Shown: positions 51,072 to 63,998, counted from the first letter of the stretch. The stretch is 64,000 bases of DNA from an uncultured Muribaculaceae bacterium (GCA_964630365.1 CAZVUP010000004.1:1970-65969), one strand, 5' to 3'. Notes: a model not told the origin generated them from the letters alone. Numbers and translations are program-made.

Positions 51072-51392
51072 ATGTATATCATTTTAAATAAGAAAAAAAT
51101 AGAAATAAAAGAACCAACTTCATTCTGGGACAAATTTAAAGGACTAAAATTTATTTTAAATCCTATCGATTATGGTATACTTTTCAGAAATAAAAAATTT
51201 ATTACAACAAATTTTCACTGTCAAAGAATAGATATTATAATTACTGATGAAGATAATCGAATAATTGCTATTTATAAAGATATAGGTAGTGAAAAATACA
51301 TAATTAATTTAAAGGCTAAAAACACCTATTTTTTTCCTTTACAAACAGCCGAAAATTTTCGAATAAATGACATTTTAAAAATAAAAAAATAA
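51072..51392 (+). CDS. DUF192-like small protein
   Basis: The 106-aa protein follows a GGTGAT RBS. The pattern FWDKFKGLKF...GILF...RIDIIITDEDNRIIAI resembles DUF192 (COG1430). Confidence 0.5.
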   Translation: MYIILNKKKIEIKEPTSFWDKFKGLKFILNPIDYGILFRNKKFITTNFHCQRIDIIITDEDNRIIAIYKDIGSEKYIINLKAKNTYFFPLQTAENFRINDILKIKK

Positions 51393-51413
51393 AGAATCCT
51401 TCAGGATTCTTTA
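51392..51413. terminator. Bidirectional terminator between convergent genes
   Basis: AAAGAATCC (51392-51400) pairs with GGATTCTTT (51405-51413) around the loop TTCA. Confidence 0.6.
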
Positions 51414-52211
51414 TTTGTTCATCTCTTTATACATCATTGTTTTTTCAACTATTCTTTTAATAGTTTGATCATTAAATGGTTTTTCTAGCATATCAACAAT
51501 ATCATATGTAAAAGCTCTATCTATTGTCTCTTTTGAAGAATCTCCAGATATTATTGATACTGGCATTTTTTTAAATAGATCATTTTGTCTCATAAATTCA
51601 AGTACACCAAAACCATCTACTTTTGGCATTTTTAAATCAAGTAAAACTGCTTCTATTAATTCATTATTCATATTGGCTTTTAAAACTGCAATTGCTTCTT
51701 CACCATCTTTAGCAATACCAACAGTATATTTATCACTGAATATCCTTTTTACAAAATTTCTAACTATATTAGAATCATCAACAACTAAAATAGTCTTCTT
51801 ATCAAAAACAGCATTAGCCTGTGTTTCAATATCATTAACATTTCTTGAATCATCACCATTCATATATTCTTGAATTAAAACAATAGTCTTATTTGTTTCT
51901 TCAATTAAATCATTAATATGCTCAGAAATGTATACCAAATCACCTATTTTACTCTTTTTTTCATGCTCATAAGCCATATCTGCAAGAGCTTTAAATCCAA
52001 AACTCTTTGCATCATTTTTCATTGAATGAACATAAACTTCATATGTAAACAAATCGTTAGCTTCAAACAACTTAATTAACTGACTTATTTTTGTATGAAT
52101 ACCAACTAAAAACTCTCCTAGCGTGTTATTATATGTTTCTTCATCACCAAAAACATTCATACTACTTTGAACATCTACACCATGTTCTTCTAAAAATTTA
52201 ATACTCTTCAT
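51411..52211 (-). CDS. Hpt-REC fusion protein (phosphotransfer domain plus CheY-like receiver, no output domain)
   Basis: The Hpt motif is VHSMKNDAKSFG. The receiver has VVDDS, the phospho-acceptor context VLLDLKMPKVDG, SIISGD and LEKPF. Confidence 0.8.
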   Translation of the reverse strand: MKSIKFLEEHGVDVQSSMNVFGDEETYNNTLGEFLVGIHTKISQLIKLFEANDLFTYEVYVHSMKNDAKSFGFKALADMAYEHEKKSKIGDLVYISEHINDLIEETNKTIVLIQEYMNGDDSRNVNDIETQANAVFDKKTILVVDDSNIVRNFVKRIFSDKYTVGIAKDGEEAIAVLKANMNNELIEAVLLDLKMPKVDGFGVLEFMRQNDLFKKMPVSIISGDSSKETIDRAFTYDIVDMLEKPFNDQTIKRIVEKTMMYKEMNK

Positions 52212-52233
52212 AAAACACCTCTATCTTGAATAA

Positions 52234-52262
52234 ATTATATAACACAAAAAAAGAAATTACAA
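52234..52262 (-). promoter_or_regulatory. Promoter-like element upstream of the Hpt-REC gene
   Basis: The minus strand reads TTGTAA (52257-52262), a 17-nt spacer, then TATAAT (52234-52239). Confidence 0.45.
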
Positions 52263-52266
52263 TTAC

Positions 52267-54294
52267 TTATTTCTTAATAAGTGTGTAATTTCTCTGATTA
52301 GTAGCATTCTCTAAATATTTAGCTTTATTATTTCTGATAATTTCTAAAAAGCTCTTATTATCAGGGCTAAGATAATATTCTTCAATACTATCAATAGCCA
52401 TATCACCAAGTTCTTCTTCTCCTTTTAAATAACATGACTTGGCATAAAGAAGAGTCTCATTTACAAGCCTATTTTCAACTCTCCTAGTAACTTTAGAAAA
52501 ATCCCTATTATAGCCAGACTCTTTAGCCATTGCATTAGCAACTATCAAAGAATCTAGTGCTTCATCATAATGATTAAGTTTATATAAACAACAACCATAA
52601 TAGAAATAAATAATTTCGTGAGGATTACCGCCCATAATAAGTTTTCTAAAAACCATTAAAGCTTCCATATATTTTTGATTACCATAAAGTTCTTTAGCAA
52701 TAATAAACTCTTCCTTAAAGTTAATATATTCAAAACTTCTTCTTCTAAGAACTATTCTATCTTTATTACGATAATTAATTTTAAAAGAAGCAACCTCTTT
52801 AGAATAATTATCTAAATCACCTAAAATCTTATTTGTTTGCTTTGGAGATAAAACTGGAACTAAATAAACATATCTCTCATCTTTAATAATCTCTAATAAT
52901 TTATCTACAAAGTCTTTTTTACTAGTGACTGGCTTTTTTGGTTTTTCTTTTTGATCTATTACTTTATTATCTGTAATTCTCTCAACCATATTAACAAGAT
53001 CTGATATATATGGATACCTAACACCTAATATTCTTGCTCCATATATTAAATTTAGATAAACTCTAGCAGAATCTTTATCATGCATATCTACTGCTTCTTG
53101 AAATTTTTGTAAGTGATAATCCAAATCAAATTTATAACTATTATTTCTAATATCTGCTAAAGAATTGTTAATGAGCTCATTAATACTACTATCTTTTCCA
53201 GCAAGCATTATATAAGCATCAAACAAAAATAAATAATCACTCTTATTAATCGAATATAAATATCTACTGATAGTAGATAAAACTAAAGATGTATCAATTG
53301 AAGTATTATCACTTAAATTTTTAACAATACTAGGGACATCAGAAACTTGCTTATTATTTTTTACATCATCAATAATTTTAATTACTTTTAGCAATAGAAC
53401 ATACAAAATATTCTTATTAGCATTATCACCTTTCTTAGCATATATATAAGCTACTAAATCTTCAAAATGATTATTATAAAGGCTCTCCGTCAAATCATCT
53501 TGATCAAATTCAGACACCACCTCAGGAATAGCTCCTTTTTGCAAAACATCAAAATAAGTTTGTAAAAGATATAAAATTTTTGCTTCTTTCTTTGATAATA
53601 TACTACTATCTTTTTTTTCAAGCATACGCTTAGCCTCTAATAAACAATCAGCTTTTATTGCTCCAGCAACTTTGTGCAAAAAATCTTTTTGTAGCGAACT
53701 AGCTTTAGTTAATAACTTAGAATCAGCAGAAATAGAAAAAGTATTAGTGCCAGAGACCATTCCGTTATGATTTACTTTATGAGCGAAAACATACTCATTG
53801 TGATATACAGCTTCTCTAACTTTATTTGTATCATCTAACTGAACATTATTTTCTAGCAATAAATCATTAAGATTTAAACTTGCTACATAATCCTTGTATT
53901 TTATTGGCAAATCACAAAGATAGTTTAAAATATATAATTTATAATTAAAATCTGCCTCACTTTTCAAAACATCAAAATATTTATTTAGTAAGATAATAAT
54001 TTTTTCAAAATTATCACTTTCAATAAAATAATCAAAAAATACATAAAAAACTTTCTTATCGTTTTTATCAATTAAATACTTAAAAAGATACTCTGCTTCT
54101 TCAAAACGCGAATTCTTATAACACCCAACAGCATATATAGCAAGTGAAAAATCATCTCCTAAAGAAAGATTCTTTTTACTATCACAAACTAATACTTCTT
54201 CTAAAAGTAAGTCACTAATTATGATACCTGGTATTTTTATTTGATCCATTGAAATATTTTTGGTTCTTCTTAATAATTCAAATAATTCAATCAT
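52267..54294 (-). CDS. Large TPR-like helical-repeat protein, paralog B
   Basis: The 675-aa protein has a C-terminal block (YFYYGCCLYKLNHYDEALDSLIVANAMAKESGYNRDF...LYAKSCYLKGEEELGD) that is paralogous to the upstream gene. Confidence 0.65.
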   Translation of the reverse strand: MIELFELLRRTKNISMDQIKIPGIIISDLLLEEVLVCDSKKNLSLGDDFSLAIYAVGCYKNSRFEEAEYLFKYLIDKNDKKVFYVFFDYFIESDNFEKIIILLNKYFDVLKSEADFNYKLYILNYLCDLPIKYKDYVASLNLNDLLLENNVQLDDTNKVREAVYHNEYVFAHKVNHNGMVSGTNTFSISADSKLLTKASSLQKDFLHKVAGAIKADCLLEAKRMLEKKDSSILSKKEAKILYLLQTYFDVLQKGAIPEVVSEFDQDDLTESLYNNHFEDLVAYIYAKKGDNANKNILYVLLLKVIKIIDDVKNNKQVSDVPSIVKNLSDNTSIDTSLVLSTISRYLYSINKSDYLFLFDAYIMLAGKDSSINELINNSLADIRNNSYKFDLDYHLQKFQEAVDMHDKDSARVYLNLIYGARILGVRYPYISDLVNMVERITDNKVIDQKEKPKKPVTSKKDFVDKLLEIIKDERYVYLVPVLSPKQTNKILGDLDNYSKEVASFKINYRNKDRIVLRRRSFEYINFKEEFIIAKELYGNQKYMEALMVFRKLIMGGNPHEIIYFYYGCCLYKLNHYDEALDSLIVANAMAKESGYNRDFSKVTRRVENRLVNETLLYAKSCYLKGEEELGDMAIDSIEEYYLSPDNKSFLEIIRNNKAKYLENATNQRNYTLIKK

Positions 54295-54323
54295 AAAAAC
54301 ATCTCCCTATAATATATATACAA

Positions 54324-56543
54324 TTATCTTTTAATTACCAAACAATTCATATGTTGATTTTTACGATGTGAATAAAATAATCGATTAGCCTTTAAATTCT
54401 TTATAAGTAATTTTAAAAGATCTGTTTTATTTCGACTTTTAATTACTTCCCTCAAGTATCTATCACCACATTCAAGATCGCCATCAGAATAACAATCTCT
54501 AGCATAAACAAGTTTTGCATAATTAATTTTTTCCATAGTTAAACCAAGTTTTTCAACTGTCTCTTCTAAACTAAGGCCACCATCACGAGATAGTTCAATT
54601 AATGAATTTATAAGATCAGCTTCACTTCTAAATAATTCTTTGAAACTTCCCCCAAATTTTGATTGAAAAGATTGTCTTCTTCTTTTCTTACACTGTTCCA
54701 ATAAACCATCATAATTAGTATCCCAGCCTCTTCGTTTAACCATTGAGTTAGCAATTAATAAACAATCAATTGCTTCATTATATTCACCTAAATTATATAA
54801 TATCAAACCACATTTAGCATATACTCCCGCACTTGGTCTCCCAAAAGATAATAGTTCTCTACCATATTCTAAAGCTTTTCGATAGTTTTGAAAAACATAA
54901 TAATGTTGAAATTCTTCAACTAATGGTGCTATGTCAATATACTCTTCAGTATATTTTTTCTTTTTAATAGCAATTCTTTTATCATCACCATCATCAATAG
55001 TAAAAGCAACAGCATCATCAAAATGAGAAACCATCTCAAAAATTTCACTTGTTTTTTTGTAACCTAATGGTGGTAAAACTATTACACTTCGACCATTAGC
55101 TAACTCTTTCATTTTTAAACGAACATAGTTTTTTAATGATAATACTCCATAATCTTCATCAACTACCATAGTAGCAAACTTTTGCCCACCAAAACGTTCA
55201 TATAAAGAAGTTAATTCAAGCTCCAATTCTGGATTAAAAATAAATGTTTGACTATAATCTAATATGTCATAATATAATTTTGCTTTTGGAAATTCACCAG
55301 CATATAAAGCTTCTTTATAAAGATCAATATATTTAGTACTATCAAACTGAAATTCATCTTCACTTAAATCTGTAAGCAATTCAATTACCTTACTAAATGT
55401 TTGATCATTATCTAAAGTAGAAATCATTAAAACATCGCGAACTAAGTAATAATAATCAGCCATATCTATTTCACATAAGTATTCTTTTATAGCTTGATAA
55501 TCACCAATATATACCGCACTAATAGCCCTATCTAAAGTAGTACATTCATTCTTTTTATCTCTTCGAAGTTCAACTATTGAATTAATCAATTCATTAATCT
55601 TCTTAAGCATTAAATATAAAATATTATTAGAATTATAACCTCTATAAGAAGTTAAAGCTCTTCTAAAATCTAAATTATCAATATGATCATAAGTATTAGC
55701 ATTAGCAACTGTTTTATGAATAGGAATACGACATGTCTCAGAAATCTCTAAATAGGCATTAATTGTTTTTAAAGTATAAATATCATTTTTTGAAGCTCTA
55801 CCAGATTCTTGAAGTTTTTCTAGAATCTCTTGTACACTTTCAAAGTTATCATTTTCTATTTCCCTAGCCATTTTCCTGCCTAGTTTTTTATATTTAGTAT
55901 TAGCCATTTTTATAAGTTTAGCAGAAATACTATCATAAACTGTAACCTTACTTAAAGCATCCATTTTACGATCAGTTTTAATATCTGCTTCAATTGTATA
56001 ATTCTCATATACTGATCTTCTTATTTCATTTTCAAAACTATGTTGCATATATCTTTGATCATCCATTGATACAGAAATATCATCTAAAGTAAGATTTTTT
56101 ACTCGATCTAGAGTTTCAGAATCAATTCCATCAAAAGCCTTAGTCATTAACAAATAAAAATAATTTATATCTTTACTATAATATTCATCTCCAGCATAAA
56201 CTTTTTCTAAATTTTCTAAATGTTCTCTAAATACTTCTAATTTACCATCATCAATAGAATTATTTAAAAACCATAAATTAACAACAACGTTATATCTATC
56301 CTTTAAATAACAAATATCAATAAGCTTATTTGCAAACCCTTTATTACTTTTCCAGTTTTTTATCGCAAATATAAATAACTTATCAACACTACCTAAAGTA
56401 TACTCATTAGTAGCAGCTTGTTCTAAAAAACCACTAGAAATAAACTTCTCAATTTCATTATCACTAAACCCAATAGTAATTAGTTCATCTCTAGAGATAA
56501 AACCATTCTTCAAGATAGCATCTAAAATGCTAATTAAATTCAT
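54324..56543 (-). CDS. Large TPR-like helical-repeat protein, paralog A
   Basis: The start is set at MNLISILD after GGGGGT. The C-terminal block YAKCGLILYNLGEYNEAIDCLLIANSMVKRRGWDTNY...VYARDCYSDGDLECGD matches paralog B. Confidence 0.65.
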   Translation of the reverse strand: MNLISILDAILKNGFISRDELITIGFSDNEIEKFISSGFLEQAATNEYTLGSVDKLFIFAIKNWKSNKGFANKLIDICYLKDRYNVVVNLWFLNNSIDDGKLEVFREHLENLEKVYAGDEYYSKDINYFYLLMTKAFDGIDSETLDRVKNLTLDDISVSMDDQRYMQHSFENEIRRSVYENYTIEADIKTDRKMDALSKVTVYDSISAKLIKMANTKYKKLGRKMAREIENDNFESVQEILEKLQESGRASKNDIYTLKTINAYLEISETCRIPIHKTVANANTYDHIDNLDFRRALTSYRGYNSNNILYLMLKKINELINSIVELRRDKKNECTTLDRAISAVYIGDYQAIKEYLCEIDMADYYYLVRDVLMISTLDNDQTFSKVIELLTDLSEDEFQFDSTKYIDLYKEALYAGEFPKAKLYYDILDYSQTFIFNPELELELTSLYERFGGQKFATMVVDEDYGVLSLKNYVRLKMKELANGRSVIVLPPLGYKKTSEIFEMVSHFDDAVAFTIDDGDDKRIAIKKKKYTEEYIDIAPLVEEFQHYYVFQNYRKALEYGRELLSFGRPSAGVYAKCGLILYNLGEYNEAIDCLLIANSMVKRRGWDTNYDGLLEQCKKRRRQSFQSKFGGSFKELFRSEADLINSLIELSRDGGLSLEETVEKLGLTMEKINYAKLVYARDCYSDGDLECGDRYLREVIKSRNKTDLLKLLIKNLKANRLFYSHRKNQHMNCLVIKR

Positions 56544-56547
56544 ATTT

Positions 56548-57213
56548 TTACCCCCTATTATTATAAATAATTGGATAAGGATTTCCAAACTCCTCCATAG
56601 TTTTTACCATCAACTTACCCATTCCTTTTCTCTCGACTAACTCCTCAGCTGCACAAATAACTCCATGTGCCCATTCATCAGCATCTTCATAAAAATCAAA
56701 ACCTTCACCATGAGGTCCACCATCGCCTAAGGCCACCATAAAATCAATTTTCTCAGCAATTGCTCTATCAATTACTAATTCTGCTGCCTCCTCTGGCATT
56801 AATCCAATTAAAAGATTACAGTCAGCAAGTGAACTACTTTTAGTAAACTTTTCTCTGACAAGCTTTAAACTCATAGTATCTTCTTCGTATATACTTAGTC
56901 GTGGATCATAAACAACTAATCTACCAGTATCTAATTCAGCTTCAATTCTTTTCGCTAAACATGGAATAACTCCTCCACCTACTTCAACAATTCTTCTACC
57001 ATTAAGAGTAAAATTATCTTTAAGTAATTGAAAAAAGCCATCATAAATATTTAAATTACTTGGTAAAATTTCTAATTGATCATAAACTTCTCTAACATCC
57101 GCTGGTATAAATTGTTCAGTAATTACATAATCCAAAATAAGTTTCTTTTCATAATCTGTAAAAAGTTTTGGATACTGATCTAAATATTTACGTATTTGTT
57201 GCTGATAATCCAT
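56548..57213 (-). CDS. Rossmann-like protein (possibly UPF0146-like / methyltransferase fold)
   Basis: RRIVEVGGGVIPCLAKRI is a glycine-rich loop after a beta-strand. It is followed by LVVYDPR and CNLLIGLMPEEAAELVIDRAIAEKIDFMV. The start is set at MDYQQQ after AGGTGA. Confidence 0.4.
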   Translation of the reverse strand: MDYQQQIRKYLDQYPKLFTDYEKKLILDYVITEQFIPADVREVYDQLEILPSNLNIYDGFFQLLKDNFTLNGRRIVEVGGGVIPCLAKRIEAELDTGRLVVYDPRLSIYEEDTMSLKLVREKFTKSSSLADCNLLIGLMPEEAAELVIDRAIAEKIDFMVALGDGGPHGEGFDFYEDADEWAHGVICAAEELVERKGMGKLMVKTMEEFGNPYPIIYNNRG

Positions 57214-57254: not shown

Positions 57255-58529
57255 CTATTCTTTAAAATCAAAGTAAAAATCTAAAATACGAACTTGGTCG
57301 CCTTCTTTAGCTCCCATTTCAATTAATTTATCATCAATTCCCATTTTTCTTAATTTCTTAGCAAATCTATAAACTGCCTCATCACTAGAGAATTTAGTCA
57401 TCTTAAATATTCTTTCAACTTCCTTACCACTAACAGCCCATAAACCTTCCTCTTCTTTAGTAATAGTAAATGGCTCTTCTTTTTTAAATTTATAAAGTAC
57501 ATGACTCTCAATCTGAGATTCATCATAAAGTGGATTAGATGGAATAGTATCTAAAATATCTGCTAATTTATCAACTACCGTATTTAGTCCCGTATTAGTA
57601 GCAGCACTAACTTCAAATATTTCTAAATCAACTTTTTTCTTAAATTCTTCTAAATTTTCTTTAGCACCAGGAAGATCCATTTTATTCGCAATAACAATCA
57701 TTGGTTTTTTAATAAGTTTCTCATTAAAAGCTTCTAGTTCTTTATTTATTAAAAGATAATCTTCATAAGGATTTCTTCCCTCACTACCGCTCATATCAAT
57801 AACATGAGCAATAACTCTCGTTCTTTCAATATGACGTAAGAATTTATCTCCTAATCCTTCACCATGACTAGCACCCTCAATTAAACCTGGTAAATCTGCC
57901 ATAACAAAACTTCTACCATCACTTGCTTTAACAACTCCTAAATTAGGATTTAATGTTGTAAAGTGATAAGCTGCTATTTTAGGACGAGATCTAGACACAC
58001 AAGAAATAATTGTACTTTTACCAACACTAGGAAGTCCAACAAGGCCAACATCCGCAAGCATTTTAACTTCTACTTTTAAATTTTTAACTTCTCCTTCTTC
58101 TCCTCTTTCCGAATAATCAGGAGCAGTATTTGTTTGCGTTTTAAAAGCTGTATTACCGCGACCACCACGACCACCTTTAGCAATAACTTCTTCTTGATCT
58201 TTATGAGATAAATCAGCTAAAACCAATCCTGTATCTAAATCCGTAACAACAGTACCAAGTGGTACTTTAACAACTAATGGACTAGCACCTTTTCCATGTT
58301 GATTCTTTCCACGTCCTGCTTCACCATTACTACCTTTAATAGTTTTTTGATAACGTAAATCAAGTAAAGTATGTAGTCCTTCATCAACCTTAAAAATAAT
58401 ATCAGCACCATGTCCTCCATTACCACCATAAGGTCCACCCATCTCTATATATTTTTCACGACGAAAAGCAGTACAACCATCGCCACCTTTACCAGCTTCT
58501 ACCTTAATTTCTACTTCATCTACAAACAT
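57255..58529 (-). CDS. obg: GTPase Obg
   Basis: The N-terminus is MFVDEVEIKVEAGKGGDGC, a glycine-rich Obg fold. GTPase motifs are GLPSVGKST, DLPGLIEGA and NKMD, and a C-terminal OCT domain is present. Confidence 0.95.
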   Translation of the reverse strand: MFVDEVEIKVEAGKGGDGCTAFRREKYIEMGGPYGGNGGHGADIIFKVDEGLHTLLDLRYQKTIKGSNGEAGRGKNQHGKGASPLVVKVPLGTVVTDLDTGLVLADLSHKDQEEVIAKGGRGGRGNTAFKTQTNTAPDYSERGEEGEVKNLKVEVKMLADVGLVGLPSVGKSTIISCVSRSRPKIAAYHFTTLNPNLGVVKASDGRSFVMADLPGLIEGASHGEGLGDKFLRHIERTRVIAHVIDMSGSEGRNPYEDYLLINKELEAFNEKLIKKPMIVIANKMDLPGAKENLEEFKKKVDLEIFEVSAATNTGLNTVVDKLADILDTIPSNPLYDESQIESHVLYKFKKEEPFTITKEEEGLWAVSGKEVERIFKMTKFSSDEAVYRFAKKLRKMGIDDKLIEMGAKEGDQVRILDFYFDFKE

Positions 58530-58569: not shown

Positions 58570-59757
58570 TTAATCTACACTTCTAAAATAACTATAAGCA
58601 TTATCTTCTAGTTTTTTAATTAACCTTTTACCTCTAAACACTTCACCAAAATTATAAAAATCTTCATCTTTCATAATCTTTTCTAATAATTCTTCCATAA
58701 AAAATTCTAACTGTAGTAAATCACTAACACCAAAAATATTTTCAAATAATTCGGTATTATTATATAAAGCTAAATAATTAAGTAAATCTCTATTCTCTTC
58801 AAAAAAATATAAAACATAATGAAATAAACCTTGATAAGAGTTTTTTAGTTTTGCTTCATCTTGTGCCCAAAGTACCATTCCTTGTAAACGTCTTAAATCA
58901 TTAACGGCATTTTCTTCCGTATGAACTTCATCAATAAGTCTATAAGGTCCACCATGCATCTGTTTCAAACCACAACCCTTATCTCCTGTTTCAATAGCAT
59001 GTCTTAGTTCATGAAAAAAGTTATGATCAATATCACCAATCTCTAATAAAGAAACTAATGGAAAATATAATATACTGCCAATATTATCATCAGTATTACT
59101 AAGGATTTGTGTCGTAGTAGCAAGATTAGGATATGTTGCTGATTTTAATATTGATAATATTTCAGAAGTAGGCAAAAGACCAAATTTTTCTCTAACCTTA
59201 GCAGTAATTCTCTTACCCCAAAGTGAGTTTTCTAAAATATATAAATCGCAATTCTTATTTAGCATTTCCATTGTACTATTTAATGCTTTTATAGTTTCAA
59301 TATTATATATTGGACTAATACCTAATCTCTTACAGGTTCTTCTGTATTCTGCATCAAATATTGTTTTGTCTTCCTCGCTAAGTGTCTCATCTAGTAAAAA
59401 TGAATAATCTAGTTCTAATAACTTTTTAGCTCCACGACGAACATTAAAAGTACTACTCAAGAGATTAATATATGGCTTTCTAAATTTTCGAATAGCCTTA
59501 CTTTCCAATCTTGAAAAGTTACAAGCTTCATCAGTCATTCTTTTAGCAAGTTTAGCATCACCCCTAGCATGTTCATAAAGCTTAACAACAGTCTCAACTG
59601 GATCAACGTCAAATAAATATAGTGTATTTCTAAGACGTTCTTCAATTATATCACGATGTTCTTCTCCATAATCTTCCATATAAATATCAAGTAAGTTACT
59701 TTGATATTCTAAAACTGCCTCTTCTGGATATAATACATTTTCATAATTAACTGCCAT
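58570..59757 (-). CDS. HExxH-motif protein, paralog B (putative cytoplasmic zinc metallopeptidase fold)
   Basis: Motifs include FFHELRHAIETGD, DEVHTEENA and WGKRIT. The start is set at MAVNYEN after AGGTGGTGA. Confidence 0.6.
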   Translation of the reverse strand: MAVNYENVLYPEEAVLEYQSNLLDIYMEDYGEEHRDIIEERLRNTLYLFDVDPVETVVKLYEHARGDAKLAKRMTDEACNFSRLESKAIRKFRKPYINLLSSTFNVRRGAKKLLELDYSFLLDETLSEEDKTIFDAEYRRTCKRLGISPIYNIETIKALNSTMEMLNKNCDLYILENSLWGKRITAKVREKFGLLPTSEILSILKSATYPNLATTTQILSNTDDNIGSILYFPLVSLLEIGDIDHNFFHELRHAIETGDKGCGLKQMHGGPYRLIDEVHTEENAVNDLRRLQGMVLWAQDEAKLKNSYQGLFHYVLYFFEENRDLLNYLALYNNTELFENIFGVSDLLQLEFFMEELLEKIMKDEDFYNFGEVFRGKRLIKKLEDNAYSYFRSVD

Positions 59758-59769
59758 ATATATCACCAC

Positions 59770-60969
59770 CTACTTCTTTTTTGAATTATCTCTTAGCTTT
59801 TTCACTAATACTCTACCTTCTTCTTTTATTTCACGAGAAAAAGCAATTTTATCTCTCCTTAAAGAAAATCCCCTTCTTAATAATTCTTCAAATTTCGCCA
59901 AATTATCTTTACCAAAATAAGATTCAAAAGAACTAATGGCATTATTAATCGCAAACCTATTTAAAACCTCACAATACTCATCAAAAAACTCTTCTAAATT
60001 TAATTCTGAATATAAATATTCATATTCATTTCTATATCTACTAGGTAAAGGTTCTTGAGACCATAAAACTTTTCCTTTAAGTGCCTCTAAATCGCGAAGA
60101 GCGTTTTTTTCAGTTCTAAGTTCATTAAACAAATCATAATGATTACCAATATTTGTACTAAGGCCTGTTGATAAATCACCAAGCTCAACAACATGTCGTA
60201 ACTCATGAAAAATTATATTATCAAGAGCTTGATATTTTAATCGTTCAATAACTGGTAAATATACAAAACTATATCTAGCTCCTCCAGATGAAACTAGTCT
60301 CCCCGTAGCACCTGAAGAATCAAGACTTAATATATTAATAATATTATCAACACTAATTTCACTATACCAATTAGAAAGCTTTCTAGTGATTCTCTTACCC
60401 CATTTAGTATTTTGTAAAAGATATCGTTTTTCATCTCTTTCAGCATTTCTTCTATTACTCTCTAAAATAGTAATATAAGCGCTATCAGTTAATGGTTTAA
60501 CACCTAAACTAACACATTGTTTTAGATAATCTTTCTGTCTTTTTAGTATTTTACTTTTCACATATCTTGGAACCTGTGCATTGTTTAACATACTAACATT
60601 TTTCGTACTAAAACTTGAATAGTCAAGCTTTTCAAGTTCAGACATGGGTACTTTCTTAGGTTTAAAAAAACTAATTAACATTGAATAATACCCTGAATAA
60701 ATATGTTTATGATTCTTCCTAGCTGCCTTAATATAATCAAAGTATTCCTCTTCGACATATTCAGGAATATCAAAACGTTTCAATTTAGCACAGAATTCAT
60801 ATGTACTAATAGGATCAGAATCAAACAAATACATAGTATCATAAATTCTATCAGCCATTTTAGTAATCTGTTCTATTCCATAATCATGTGAATACAAGCT
60901 AAAAAGATTTGGAATATAATCCAAAAAAGCTTCATCAGGACGTAAAATTGCATCTAGCTTCACACTCAT
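59770..60969 (-). CDS. HExxH-motif protein, paralog A
   Basis: Motifs include IFHELRHVVELGD, NELRTEKNA and WGKRIT. The protein is 399 aa and follows a GGGGAG RBS. Confidence 0.6.
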   Translation of the reverse strand: MSVKLDAILRPDEAFLDYIPNLFSLYSHDYGIEQITKMADRIYDTMYLFDSDPISTYEFCAKLKRFDIPEYVEEEYFDYIKAARKNHKHIYSGYYSMLISFFKPKKVPMSELEKLDYSSFSTKNVSMLNNAQVPRYVKSKILKRQKDYLKQCVSLGVKPLTDSAYITILESNRRNAERDEKRYLLQNTKWGKRITRKLSNWYSEISVDNIINILSLDSSGATGRLVSSGGARYSFVYLPVIERLKYQALDNIIFHELRHVVELGDLSTGLSTNIGNHYDLFNELRTEKNALRDLEALKGKVLWSQEPLPSRYRNEYEYLYSELNLEEFFDEYCEVLNRFAINNAISSFESYFGKDNLAKFEELLRRGFSLRRDKIAFSREIKEEGRVLVKKLRDNSKKK

Positions 60970-60995: not shown

Positions 60996-61024
60996 ATTAT
61001 ACCATAAAACACTTATTTTAGCAA
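60996..61024 (-). promoter_or_regulatory. Sigma-A-type promoter (extended -10) for the HExxH-HExxH-obg unit
   Basis: The minus strand reads TTGCTA (61019-61024), a 17-nt spacer, then TGgTATAAT (-10 at 60996-61001). It lies immediately after the rpmA terminator. Confidence 0.6.
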
Positions 61025-61048
61025 GAAAAAAGAGCCTTACTGGCTCTT
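61025..61048 (-). terminator. Rho-independent terminator after rpmA
   Basis: AAGAGCC (61030-61036) pairs with GGCTCTT (61042-61048), and T6 follows on the minus strand. Confidence 0.6.
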
Positions 61049-61054
61049 AAAAAT

Positions 61055-61345
61055 CTATTTACCTTCTGGGTAAACTGAAGCTCTTTTCTTATCTCTTCCT
61101 AAACGTTCAAATTTAACGATTCCGTCAACTGTAGTATAAATAGAATCATCATTACCACGACGAGTATTTACACCTGGGAAAACTTTAGTTCCTCTTTGAC
61201 GATATATAATAGAACCAGCTGTTACAAATTCACCATCAGCTGCTTTAGCTCCAAGTCTACGTCCTGCTGAATCACGACCATTAGATGTTGATCCTTGACC
61301 TTTATGGTGTGCAAATAATTGAATATCTAATTTCAAAAATTTCAT
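61055..61345 (-). CDS. rpmA: 50S ribosomal protein L27 (with a cleavable N-terminal extension)
   Basis: The protein reads [26 protein letters not shown]... The [11 protein letters not shown] junction matches the Prp cleavage context of Bacillota L27. Confidence 0.95.
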
Positions 61346-61357
61346 AAACTTTCCTCC

Positions 61358-61660
61358 TTATTTTACTTGAATATTTTCTGGATAATTACCTTCCAGTTCC
61401 TTTAAAAGACTAACCATATTATTAATTAGTATTTGCGTAGTAGTATCCGTACTTTTAATATCAATACTCATACCCTTTTTACTAACTAAGTAACTTAGAC
61501 TATCCTTATTAAGTGCTAAAATACCATTAACCGTAGTTGTAACAATACTACTACAAGCACTACATACAATATCTTTTCCATAATCATCATATAAAGCATG
61601 ACCAAGAATTGTAATCTTTTTGTATTTAGCTTTTTCTTTAACAACATTTACATTAATCAT
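61358..61660 (-). CDS. prp: Ribosomal-processing cysteine protease Prp
   Basis: The 100-aa protein carries GHALYDDYGKDIVCSACS (the His and Cys dyad) and lies between rplU and rpmA. Confidence 0.9.
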   Translation of the reverse strand: MINVNVVKEKAKYKKITILGHALYDDYGKDIVCSACSSIVTTTVNGILALNKDSLSYLVSKKGMSIDIKSTDTTTQILINNMVSLLKELEGNYPENIQVK

Positions 61661-61662
61661 AA

Positions 61663-61965
61663 TTAACCATTAATTTTAGTAATTTTAATCTTTGTATAAG
61701 GTTGTCTATGTCCTTGAGTCTTACGATTAGATCTATCTTTACTTTTATATTTGAAAACTTTAATTTTCTTAGCTTTACCATTCTTTAGAACTTCACCTTG
61801 AACAGTAGCATTAGTAAGATAAGGATTACCAACTTTAGAATCAAGCATTAATACTTGATCAAAGTTAACTACATCACCTGCTTCGCATTCTAACTTTTCA
61901 ACGAAAATTTCAGAACCTTCAGTAACATAGTATTGCTTTCCACCAACTTTAATTACAGCGTTCAT
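61663..61965 (-). CDS. rplU: 50S ribosomal protein L21
   Basis: The start is set at MNAVIKVGGKQYYV after AAAGGAGGT. The upstream part of the ORF-track ORF is the leader region. Confidence 0.95.
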   Translation of the reverse strand: MNAVIKVGGKQYYVTEGSEIFVEKLECEAGDVVNFDQVLMLDSKVGNPYLTNATVQGEVLKNGKAKKIKVFKYKSKDRSNRKTQGHRQPYTKIKITKING

Positions 61966-62060
61966 ATATTTACCTCCTTTTTTTAAACTAAGACTCGCTC
62001 TTAAGGTACGTAAATACGTTTTTACCTTTTCAATGCGGTTTGAGCATGAGGCGTCAAACA
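61966..62060 (-). promoter_or_regulatory. Structured 5' leader of rplU (candidate L21 ribosomal-protein leader)
   Basis: About 95 nt lie between the predicted TSS and the rplU ATG. The leader contains the hairpin AAGGTA-n14-TACCTT and is relatively GC-rich. An L21 leader is known at this position in Bacillota. Confidence 0.45.
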
Positions 62061-62065
62061 TCTAG

Positions 62066-62162: not shown

Positions 62163-63998
62163 TTATTGATATTGAACAGGCACCAAAGAACTCATAACAG
62201 TGCTATACTCTTCTTCATTTAAAATCATTCCCTCAAATATTGCCTGATACATACTATTGCCTTCACTAAGTAATCTATTAACTTTATTAACCGCAACAAG
62301 TACCCCATTAATATTATATAATCGACTACTAACTCTATATTCTTCTAAATTACTAGAATTAATACCCAAATCAACTTCTTCTTTGAAATCTAAAACATTT
62401 AATAAATAAGAATCCATCTCTTCATCTCTAATAAAGAATCTCTTACTTTGGCATACACTATAAAATGTTTCTAAATCTTGTACAGGCATATTTAAAGAAT
62501 TTAATACTTCTAATCTTTTAATATCACAAACATTAAGTATACCTAAATCTTCTTCTAAAAACTTTTCATATCCTAGTTCAAGTAAACGTTCAACTTTAAC
62601 CAATAATTCACTATCAACTAAAAACAAATAACTAGTAGTAGTTTTCAAATGACCTAATAAATCATAACTTTTAAGTATATCTAAATTATTTTGTAAAAGT
62701 AAACTATTACCTATTAAGATATTTCCATTATTAGTAAACATATTAGGATTTAAACTATAACTCTCAAATAATAATATATTATTCTTTAGTAACAAATATT
62801 TTGGACTATCACTACAAAAAACATCAAAATTACCTAGTATAAATTCATCACTTAATATACCTCTATCAATATATCCCTTTATTTCTTTAACAGTAGCTAA
62901 GTCTGTACTTTTTAAAATTTTAAATAAAATATCACTACTTAATCCTGTTTTAGAAATAATTTTTAATATATCTTCTACCTCTTCCAAACTATTATACATA
63001 ATAGCTTCAATACTTTTACTATCAACTTTTATACCATAATCACTTAAAAGGACTTGATATTTAACATTACTTTTACCATTTAATGACTCATATTCTTTCG
63101 ATAGCTCTTTATAATATTTTGCATTATGTTCATAAATAATTTCTAAAAAAGCTCTTTTTATTTCTGGATCTTTAATTAAATAAAGAATTCTTAAAACATC
63201 TGTAATTTCTTTTTTTTGTAGTCCTTCATCAAGTATTGAAACAGCTAAATCTAAATTACTAAGCTCTCTATATTTATTTTTAGCATAATCCTTAGCTTCT
63301 TTATCTATTTTTCGAACTCCTTCAGAAATTCTATTAAATAAGGCAAAAACTTCGCTAAGAGAAGTTAAACTTGATAACCCTTGTTTAATATATTTCTTTT
63401 TTAAATTATTTGCATTTCTAATAACTTCTCTTGGAGCATTCAAATCACTTAATGCACCCGCTAATCTTTCATGTATCTCTTGAACATCACGATTAATACA
63501 TCCAGCAGCATAATAGACATTCATCATATTGTTAATCAATAACTGATCTTCAAAATATAATTCAAAAAATTCTGCAATTGGAAAATTAATACTATCTGCA
63601 TGACTCTTAAGACTAGTCAAATTATCAATTATATCTTCACGCAGTTTTAAATCAAAAGACATTATTTTTGATTTTATTGAACTCTTCTCTTTTAAATATC
63701 TAACTACTTTTTCACCTTCACCGCTATCCGCAATTATTTCAGATATATATATTGTGTGACTTAATGATTGATAATCCATTCCTGAAACTACGGGATAAAC
63801 TATCCTATCAACAATTCTTTCAGCCTCTTTCTCAGATGGATTAGGATTTAAAGTTTGTGAAAAATAAAGTACTTTTAAAAGATATTTCATATCATAACCA
63901 ATAAAATCTTCTGGCTTAGAAATAAAATGATTCTTACAAAAATCACTAAGAGGATAATATTGAGGTATAAAAACATAATCACTATCTAATTCTTTTTT
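62163..63998 (-). CDS. Large alpha-helical hypothetical protein, 5' end possibly outside the window
   Basis: The reading frame stays open from the stop at 62163 to the window edge (…KKELDSDYVFIPQYYPLSDFCKNHFISKPEDFIGYDMKYLLK…). The first in-window ATG is at 63890. The sequence is rich in Leu/Ile/Asn helical segments. Confidence 0.5.
   Translation of the reverse strand, partial: KKELDSDYVFIPQYYPLSDFCKNHFISKPEDFIGYDMKYLLKVLYFSQTLNPNPSEKEAERIVDRIVYPVVSGMDYQSLSHTIYISEIIADSGEGEKVVRYLKEKSSIKSKIMSFDLKLREDIIDNLTSLKSHADSINFPIAEFFELYFEDQLLINNMMNVYYAAGCINRDVQEIHERLAGALSDLNAPREVIRNANNLKKKYIKQGLSSLTSLSEVFALFNRISEGVRKIDKEAKDYAKNKYRELSNLDLAVSILDEGLQKKEITDVLRILYLIKDPEIKRAFLEIIYEHNAKYYKELSKEYESLNGKSNVKYQVLLSDYGIKVDSKSIEAIMYNSLEEVEDILKIISKTGLSSDILFKILKSTDLATVKEIKGYIDRGILSDEFILGNFDVFCSDSPKYLLLKNNILLFESYSLNPNMFTNNGNILIGNSLLLQNNLDILKSYDLLGHLKTTTSYLFLVDSELLVKVERLLELGYEKFLEEDLGILNVCDIKRLEVLNSLNMPVQDLETFYSVCQSKRFFIRDEEMDSYLLNVLDFKEEVDLGINSSNLEEYRVSSRLYNINGVLVAVNKVNRLLSEGNSMYQAIFEGMILNEEEYSTVMSSLVPVQYQ

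Follow-up and report, generated by a model that had tools for sequence, protein, structure and literature searches.

Multistep phosphorelays occur in several layouts. In the ArcB-ArcA, BarA-UvrY, EvgS-EvgA and TorS-TorR systems, the kinase carries HisKA, HATPase, REC and Hpt domains in one chain, and phosphoryl groups flow from His to Asp to His to Asp, the last on a separate receiver. In LuxQ/LuxU/LuxO, ShkA/ShpA/TacA and Sln1/Ypd1/Ssk1, a hybrid of a histidine kinase (HK) and a receiver (REC) signals through a monomeric histidine phosphotransfer (Hpt) protein to a receiver. Bacillus uses Spo0F and Spo0B as intermediate His and Asp carriers without output, alongside Spo0A and the sporulation genes, with an rplU-rpmA-obg neighbourhood. 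Proteins that consist of response regulator and Hpt domains only (the 'RRHPt' type) are rare but known; the census of Salvado et al. 2015 counts 312 of them in 264 species and assigns them no function (PMC4558063). Here we describe a protein of this architecture, Hpt-REC, which is encoded on the minus strand at 51411-52211 of a 64,000-nucleotide stretch (the window) from an uncultured bacterium whose assembly comprises 1.57 Mb in 71 contigs (28% GC, 91% complete). From comparisons across related genomes, we think it fairly likely that Hpt-REC is the downstream half of a multistep phosphorelay conserved in this bacterial family.

How does this system compare with the described ones? Like the ArcB-type relays, this genome has a kinase with all four domains in one chain, and the flow would likewise run from His to Asp to His to Asp on a separate receiver. 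Unlike in those relays, the final receiver has no output domain for DNA binding and is preceded, at the N terminus of its chain, by a second, paralogous Hpt; moreover, most related genera have a kinase without an Hpt and an Hpt fused to the terminal receiver. Genera in which Hpt and REC are separate genes match the LuxU-type layout exactly. However, Hpt and terminal receiver usually form one polypeptide here, without an effector domain and in an operon with an ANL-superfamily ligase. The likeness to Spo0F-Spo0B lies in the two carriers without output, the gene neighbourhood and the presence of Spo0A and sporulation genes. In contrast to the dimeric Spo0B, the Hpt is of the predicted monomeric four-helix-bundle type and no SPOB_a domain is present; moreover, the module persists without a Spo0A receiver and is absent from many genomes with a Spo0A_C match. 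Our literature searches found no paper describing the Hpt-REC family or its ligase/hybrid-kinase operon.

The Hpt-REC protein and its probable kinase

The receiver of the 266-residue Hpt-REC protein (residues 139-262; 51426-51797, minus strand) matches REC (PF00072) with E = 9e-21, at 74.6 bits against a cut-off of 30.2. The Hpt domain (residues 1-117; 51861-52211, minus strand) matches PF01627 with E = 5e-4 and 20.7 bits, slightly below the Pfam cut-off of 24.6, and a precomputed PF01627 match is present in many orthologs. All key residues are in place: the predicted phospho-His62 within VHSMKNDAKSFGF (codon 52026-52028), the D145-D146 pair, the phospho-acceptor D192 (51636-51638), S222 and K244-P245. 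These matches and residues bear out a preliminary description of the window, which had proposed an Hpt domain fused to a complete receiver without an output domain.

To place the protein, we surveyed 151 genomes of the order, from 86 genera and 0.6-1.6 Mb in size (below, G numbers denote genomes and C numbers contigs). Hpt-REC matches at E <= 1e-25 are found in 94 of these genomes, with REC-only and Hpt-only matches counted, and 22 of the 24 congeners encode a full-length ortholog with 56-69% identity. The Hpt-REC family is conserved across a family of uncultured gut Bacilli with genomes of 0.7-1.6 Mb. In a 25-sequence alignment of the genus, the DD pair, D192, S222 and P245 never vary and K244 hardly does. 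Every aligned ortholog retains the DD pair, D192 and K-P, and all but one have Ser or Thr at position 222. The preliminary description had made its Hpt assignment depend on conservation of the His. Of the 25 genus clusters, 24 retain His62, as do all 18 sequences of a cross-genus alignment, which includes this genome's protein and covers every genus whose kinase is without an Hpt. The His is lost only in this genus, in three lineages (Arg in G011 and G016, Gln in P0021). Mean pairwise identity in the genus is 84% for the receiver, 76% for the Hpt and 34% for the linker, and the difference between the last two values rules out decay of the Hpt domain in this genus.

Where is the kinase? None lies near Hpt-REC within the window, as had been noted before. 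A search of the genome for a hybrid kinase and for Spo0A, which the preliminary description had called for, turned up both. The genome has five REC domains, found in an OmpR-type pair, a LytTR pair, Spo0A, Hpt-REC and one hybrid kinase; no stand-alone receiver protein is among them. The gene for the hybrid kinase is split over two contig ends (C34:3-1271, minus strand, and C10:3-1187, plus strand). These ends overlap by exactly 55 nucleotides and, once joined, give one open frame of ~800 residues, which puts the assembly break within the gene of the partner kinase. The protein has ~6 transmembrane helices followed by HisKA (E = 3e-16), HATPase_c (E = 3e-25), REC (E = 1.5e-22) and Hpt (E = 1e-4) in a single chain, the composition that defines a tripartite hybrid kinase. 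Its Hpt is paralogous to that of Hpt-REC, with 33% identity to this domain and 57-60% identity to module Hpts of other genera. The gene that immediately precedes the kinase gene belongs to the ANL superfamily and resembles acyl-CoA ligases (C34:1344-3116). The absence of a kinase beside Hpt-REC is a local rearrangement, and the cognate hybrid kinase is encoded elsewhere in the genome.

In the ancestral arrangement, phosphoryl groups would pass from the kinase His to the kinase Asp, then to Hpt His62 and finally to receiver Asp192. In this genome, the likely route would lead from H1, D1 and H2 of the kinase to D192 of Hpt-REC. The protein's own Hpt is conserved, yet its His would no longer be strictly required in this route. 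Since the receiver has no output domain, it would act by protein contacts, in the manner of CheY, DivK or Spo0F, or as a sink. In a rival reading, the fused receiver would serve only as a phosphate sink or buffer, and the true output would pass from an Hpt, either the kinase's or its own, to another regulator. The lack of an output domain is in keeping with this, as are the high local concentration of receiver that fusion creates beside the Hpt and the finding that the Hpt His can be lost while the receiver stays invariant. However, a pure sink would not explain why the whole module is kept in such reduced genomes. Moreover, in asporogenous species whose only systems are OmpR- or LytTR-type pairs, there is no other orphan regulator in sight, a complement checked in this genome only. 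We consider an account of the receiver as nothing but a sink improbable.

Module organization in related genera

With its HisKA-CA-REC part as query, we looked for the kinase in 20 selected genomes, 15 of them outside the genus, and compared the coordinates with those of the Hpt and REC matches. In 13 of the 15 non-genus genomes, representing 11 genera, the end of the kinase ortholog is followed at once by Hpt-REC or by separate Hpt and REC genes. The kinase abuts a fused Hpt-REC in G091, G063, G124, G082, G130, G146, G068, G098, G059, G083 and G080, and separate Hpt and REC genes in G085 and G171. These orthologs are ~610 residues long, share 52-61% identity over HisKA-CA-REC and lack an Hpt. 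Clustering of open reading frames (ORFs) revealed further kinase/Hpt-REC adjacency in G090, G112 and G025, the last from a different family. Among the 12 loci with an ANL ligase, most have it immediately before the kinase gene. Overall, Hpt-REC or its separate halves are found in ~100 of the 151 genomes, and the fused and split forms alternate among genera with the gene order unchanged. Gene order in these relatives shows the ancestral unit to be a three-gene operon that encodes the ANL ligase (an adenylate-forming enzyme resembling acyl-CoA ligases), a multi-transmembrane HisKA-CA-REC kinase and Hpt-REC, the last divided into two genes in some genera.

The same comparisons show that the kinase of this genus, like that of a few others, bears an Hpt of its own and lies apart from Hpt-REC. 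In this genus, the kinase has acquired this Hpt at its C terminus and has become unlinked together with the ligase gene, and Hpt-REC remained beside obg. Of the 22 congeners that encode Hpt-REC, 21 show an additional Hpt match at a place other than this gene, mostly in a frame of hybrid-kinase length. Two congeners lack both: G024 has neither the kinase nor Hpt-REC, and G010 has neither Hpt-REC nor a second Hpt match. If the kinase supplies its own Hpt, the His of Hpt-REC should be dispensable in this genus, and it is indeed lost only there and kept wherever the kinase has no Hpt.

The module varies in other ways among relatives. Separate, adjacent Hpt and REC genes are found in G085, G171, G164, G056 and G097. 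In one genus, Hpt-REC is duplicated in tandem (G063:C8:41464-43076 and G074:C2:41929-43549). In G067, G087, G108 and G122, REC matches fall in frames of ~540 residues that stand beside separate Hpt genes of ~125-130 residues.

Four observations weigh against Hpt-REC being simply the downstream half of this relay. First, the kinase is not adjacent to Hpt-REC in G057 and possibly also in G061. Second, the Hpt of Hpt-REC stays conserved in the genus although a route from H1 through D1 and H2 to D2 needs none; it therefore keeps some role beyond this simple route. Third, the closest REC relative of the Hpt-REC receiver within the genome is that of Spo0A (31% identity, 56 bits) rather than that of the kinase (29 bits), which fits a phosphodonor shared with Spo0A. 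Finally, p221, a gene discussed below, immediately precedes Hpt-REC in most congeners, as it does in G066 of another genus, and a functional link between the two is possible.

Spo0A and the spo0B neighbourhood

Does the relay feed Spo0A? The preliminary description had assigned the intermediate functions of both Spo0F and Spo0B to Hpt-REC and had pointed to its location where Bacillus keeps spo0B. The location is confirmed by the gene order rplU-prp-rpmA-X-obg, in which rplU, prp (ysxB) and rpmA (61055-62061, minus strand) form the context that defines the spo0B neighbourhood and obg (57255-58529, minus strand) encodes the GTPase ObgE (NCBIfam PRK12297, E = 6e-179). In Firmicutes, Spo0B has been defined by its L21/L27/Obg neighbourhood (Davidson et al., PMC6136694). 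Spo0F has been defined as a stand-alone receiver making up at least 90% of the protein, encoded beside fbaA, CTP synthase or transaldolase (PMC6136694). Spo0B itself is built from a SPOB_a helical hairpin that bears the His, plus a pseudo-CA domain. Hpt-REC shares the L21/L27/ObgE neighbourhood of Spo0B but has no SPOB_a match. It also differs from Spo0F, since its receiver is fused to an Hpt and its neighbours are obg and yebC.

These findings bring us to the idea that Hpt-REC replaces Spo0F and Spo0B, such that a sporulation kinase would phosphorylate the receiver, the receiver the Hpt, and the Hpt Spo0A, with the gene having taken the ancestral spo0B slot. The genome encodes a genuine Spo0A (Spo0A_C E = 9e-41) and SpoIVA. 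It has no free-standing REC, and no SPOB_a rises above the Pfam cut-off in Hpt-REC or in the 25 genus genomes. Spo0A is the sole orphan DNA-binding regulator in the genome, and the kinship between its receiver and that of Hpt-REC speaks for the same idea. Moreover, Hpt-REC lies within the rplU/rpmA/obg neighbourhood in at least six genera. It sits exactly in the spo0B slot in G057 (rplU-prp-rpmA-HptREC-obg), and the order is ligase-HK-HptREC-(103 aa)-obg in G146, ligase-HK-HptREC-HptREC-(234 aa)-rplU-prp-rpmA-(163 aa)-obg in G063 and obg-HptREC in G050 (aa, amino acids, for intervening ORFs). We also looked for a remnant of Spo0B near obg and rejected it: the genus has no SPOB_a above the cut-off, and no informative Pfam match came from the short ORFs that separate rpmA from obg in G063 and G066.

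The distribution of the module argues against this replacement. Only REC-less remnants of Spo0A_C are found in G004, G009 and G018 of this genus and in G050, G166, G056 and G105 of other genera, and G044 has a decayed Spo0A receiver. G004, G009 and G018 lack SpoIVA as well. Nevertheless, all of these species, at least eight in number, keep an intact Hpt-REC or split module, plus the kinase where this was checked; Hpt-REC is intact with its His in G004, G009 and G018, and G004 and G009 have a full-length hybrid kinase. Conversely, 144 of the 151 genomes have a Spo0A_C match whereas ~50 have no Hpt module, and most of those ~50 have Spo0A_C. G016 encodes both Spo0A and SpoIVA, yet its Hpt His is replaced by Arg. 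A profile search of the PDB with Hpt-REC gave generic CheY-like matches and did not place Spo0F among the best 60. Finally, the linkage to obg can be accounted for just as well as a leftover of where the ancestral ligase-kinase-HptREC operon lay. Taken as a whole, a replacement of Spo0F and Spo0B by Hpt-REC seems unlikely to us.

What, then, remains of the proposed link to Spo0A? Both carriers, an Hpt and a receiver, are present in one chain as had been proposed, but the proposed feed into Spo0A is weakened by the losses of the Spo0A receiver, by the genomes that lack the module and by the loss of the His in three lineages. A strict tie between Hpt-REC and sporulation can be rejected. Because the module persists where the Spo0A receiver is gone, Spo0A cannot be its only target. 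Phosphotransfer to Spo0A in the sporulating members of the family is possible, and would not be the module's sole function. A related scheme would have the Spo0F-Spo0B pair replaced in place, at rpmA-obg, by an unrelated Hpt-type relay of ligase, hybrid kinase and Hpt-REC that gates Spo0A phosphorylation in the sporulating members and is maintained, once sporulation has been lost, by a second, Spo0A-independent output. We regard this scheme as rather unlikely; if true, it would be a third architecture for the initiation of sporulation, beside the Bacillus phosphorelay and the direct kinases of clostridia. Neither PMC10868615 nor PMC6136694 covers how sporulation begins in these gut and rumen Bacilli with their small genomes.

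A candidate for a kinase that acts on Spo0A directly is a 212-residue orphan histidine kinase without a sensor (HisKA-like plus HATPase_c; C23:8398-9054, minus strand), whose gene is flanked by recO and a pseudouridine-synthase-like gene. The receiver-less Spo0A_C frames span 120-224 residues with 35-49% identity (G004:C4, G009:C1/C121, G018:C2, G050:C8, G166:C7, G056:C10 and G105:C1; loci L020-L023 and L058-L062) and look like remnants or re-used DNA-binding domains after the loss of sporulation. G184 encodes a normal Spo0A and, elsewhere, a 542-residue frame with three consecutive Spo0A_C-like domains (G184:C6:51296-52375; E = 8e-20 to 4e-17).

Neighbouring genes and implications

On the minus strand, the window reads rplU-prp-rpmA, a terminator (61030-61048), a promoter-like site (60996-61024), two 399-residue paralogs, obg, p221, p739, p675, Hpt-REC and a final terminator. 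The last four genes follow obg with gaps of 41, 4, 29 and 55 nucleotides, and their arrangement in the preliminary description was reproduced from ORF coordinates. p221 (56548-57213, minus strand) encodes a 221-residue Rossmann-like protein; p739 (54324-56543, minus strand, ATG start) and p675 (52267-54294, minus strand) encode large TPR-like proteins of 739 and 675 residues. The final terminator is a bidirectional hairpin with a 13-bp stem and T-runs (51387-51416, both strands), shared by Hpt-REC and a convergent gene of 106 residues. It is the sole terminator-like hairpin on the minus strand downstream of obg, in agreement with the earlier reading.

Are these four genes one unit, with the TPR proteins acting as Rap-like or sensor partners of Hpt-REC? 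The four genes share one orientation, are separated by short gaps and have no terminator among them, and the nearest relative keeps the same order. However, the preliminary description had let its cluster idea stand or fall with synteny in relatives, and by this test it fails: the TPR genes are missing from this site in 22 of 25 genus genomes. Only three of the 25 have such genes at all. This genome has two copies, G019 has one at the corresponding site, and G007 has three elsewhere, in a tandem array between pnp and smc (locus L032, G007:C17:17500-28000). They also evolve fast. Between this genome and its nearest relative, the TPR paralogs are 62% and 53% (p675) identical, compared with 87% for p221, 91% for Hpt-REC, 95% for obg and 96% for yebC.

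What are the TPR proteins? That the two are paralogs with matching endings was borne out: p739 and p675 align with a BLASTP E value of 2e-27 (24% identity over ~500 residues), and the endings VYARDCYSDGDLECGD and LYAKSCYLKGEEELGD are both present. The TPR signal is weak in these two proteins (ANAPC3 E = 2e-5, TPR_2 E = 2e-3), and TPR_2 is matched by 29 of 36 family members. The family is very divergent, with 582 clusters at 50% identity. Its architecture comprises an AbiEi_4-type winged helix, TPRs, an R3H domain that is degenerate in the window's copies, and further TPRs. PF13338 (AbiEi_4) matches 13 of the 36 members (best E = 4e-6), and neither window protein is among them. An AlphaFold2 (AF2) model of p739, with a predicted local distance difference test (pLDDT) score of 83, has a winged-helix-like unit at residues 1-50, a helical solenoid at 53-457, an alpha/beta region at 459-528 and TPRs at 538-625. 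The G007 copies keep the canonical AbiEi-type motif RGxY, which the window's copies lack.

Rap and other RRNPP regulators (~380 residues, with an N-terminal helical bundle and 7-9 TPRs) resemble the large proteins only in having TPR-like helical repeats. The window proteins are twice that size, with a putative winged helix of AbiEi_4 type at the N terminus and a central degenerate R3H-like domain. They match Rap neither in sequence nor in fold, and no link between them and a response regulator is conserved. A PDB profile search with the large proteins gave only consensus or generic TPR proteins, and Foldseek with the p739 model gave only generic solenoids with TM < 0.2; Rap, NprR and PlcR appeared in neither search. 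Hpt-REC also has a conserved -10 box of its own, described below. A partnership of the TPR proteins with Hpt-REC therefore strikes us as very improbable. Because the TPR genes are sporadic, fast-evolving and located elsewhere in G007, they are best seen as passengers and not as parts of the relay. We conclude that they represent a sporadic, fast-evolving and tandemly expanding family, apparently inserted between p221 and Hpt-REC.

The other neighbour, p221, does have the Rossmann-like fold that had been suggested. Its AF2 model (pLDDT 92) finds class I S-adenosylmethionine (SAM) methyltransferases as the best Foldseek matches in the PDB (E = 3e-6, with TM only ~0.5). Enzymes of this class combine a seven-strand Rossmann-like fold with a Gly-rich motif I and an acidic residue that follows strand 2; in p221, EVGGG and D103 are conserved, and no Pfam or NCBIfam entry matches the protein. 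The search for p221 was positive in 22 of 25 genus genomes and negative in all 16 other Bacilli genomes that it covered; G066 has a weak relative of 30% identity. In G012, Hpt-REC directly follows obg, without p221. On its modelled fold and distribution, p221 is a nearly genus-restricted, SAM-methyltransferase-like neighbour and a presumably unrelated passenger.

Is Hpt-REC transcribed on its own? The preliminary description had noted a promoter-like element, TTGTAA-17-TATAAT, which lies in the 55-nucleotide gap before Hpt-REC and is followed by an AGAGG ribosome-binding site (52234-52262, minus strand). A bare match to the promoter consensus carries no weight, as it occurs at chance level, with 69 matches in the region against 68.8 in shuffled sequences. 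Since consensus counts are uninformative in AT-rich DNA, we examined positional conservation instead. A TATAAT box lies ~13-35 nucleotides (mostly 20-29) before the ATG in all 22 orthologous Hpt-REC loci, from several genera. The box is kept whichever gene lies upstream, whether a TPR gene, p221, obg or rpmA, and it is often accompanied by an extended TGn and followed by a ATAGAGGTG ribosome-binding site. This conservation over loci with differing upstream genes supports independent transcription, and Hpt-REC probably has its own promoter. Independent transcription fits the survival of Hpt-REC as a unit while its upstream neighbours change.

The remainder of the region is variable. In the genus, obg is followed in conserved order by an optional gene of the endonuclease/exonuclease/phosphatase (EEP) family, p221, Hpt-REC, the convergent 106-residue gene and yebC. 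The EEP-family gene (~230 residues, Exo_endo_phos E = 5e-13) stands after obg or between obg and p221 in many relatives (loci L014, L027-L030, L034 and L041). Because it is frequent there but absent from the window, the region 3' of obg is a variable insertion zone. Upstream of obg, the two 399-residue paralogs with a HELRH motif (58570-60969, minus strand) adjoin back-to-back with 30% identity (BLASTP E = 8e-50) and occupy the spo0B slot of Bacillus; most relatives have a single copy. These paralogs have no match in Pfam, NCBIfam, PADLOC or PHROG. A defence or phage origin of the TPR, p221 and 399-residue genes was considered and dropped, as none has a PADLOC or PHROG match. Further upstream of rplU, a large helical protein of at least 575 residues (62163-63998, minus strand), whose frame is open at the window edge, matches no family.

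What does this relay mean for the bacteria that encode it? The architecture and the relay logic are already known. What is new is the family itself, the three-gene unit with its ANL ligase, the series of fused, split and duplicated Hpt domains and the lineage in which they occur. The TPR genes and the Rossmann-like gene should be kept out of any signalling-operon annotation. For these Bacilli, which carry Spo0A and core sporulation genes but lack Spo0F and Spo0B, our work identifies the only orphan relay and defines its conserved three-gene unit. Altogether, the family offers a natural series for the evolution of phosphorelay wiring, in which the Hpt is separate, fused to the receiver or duplicated onto the kinase, with a matching loss of the His that has become dispensable.

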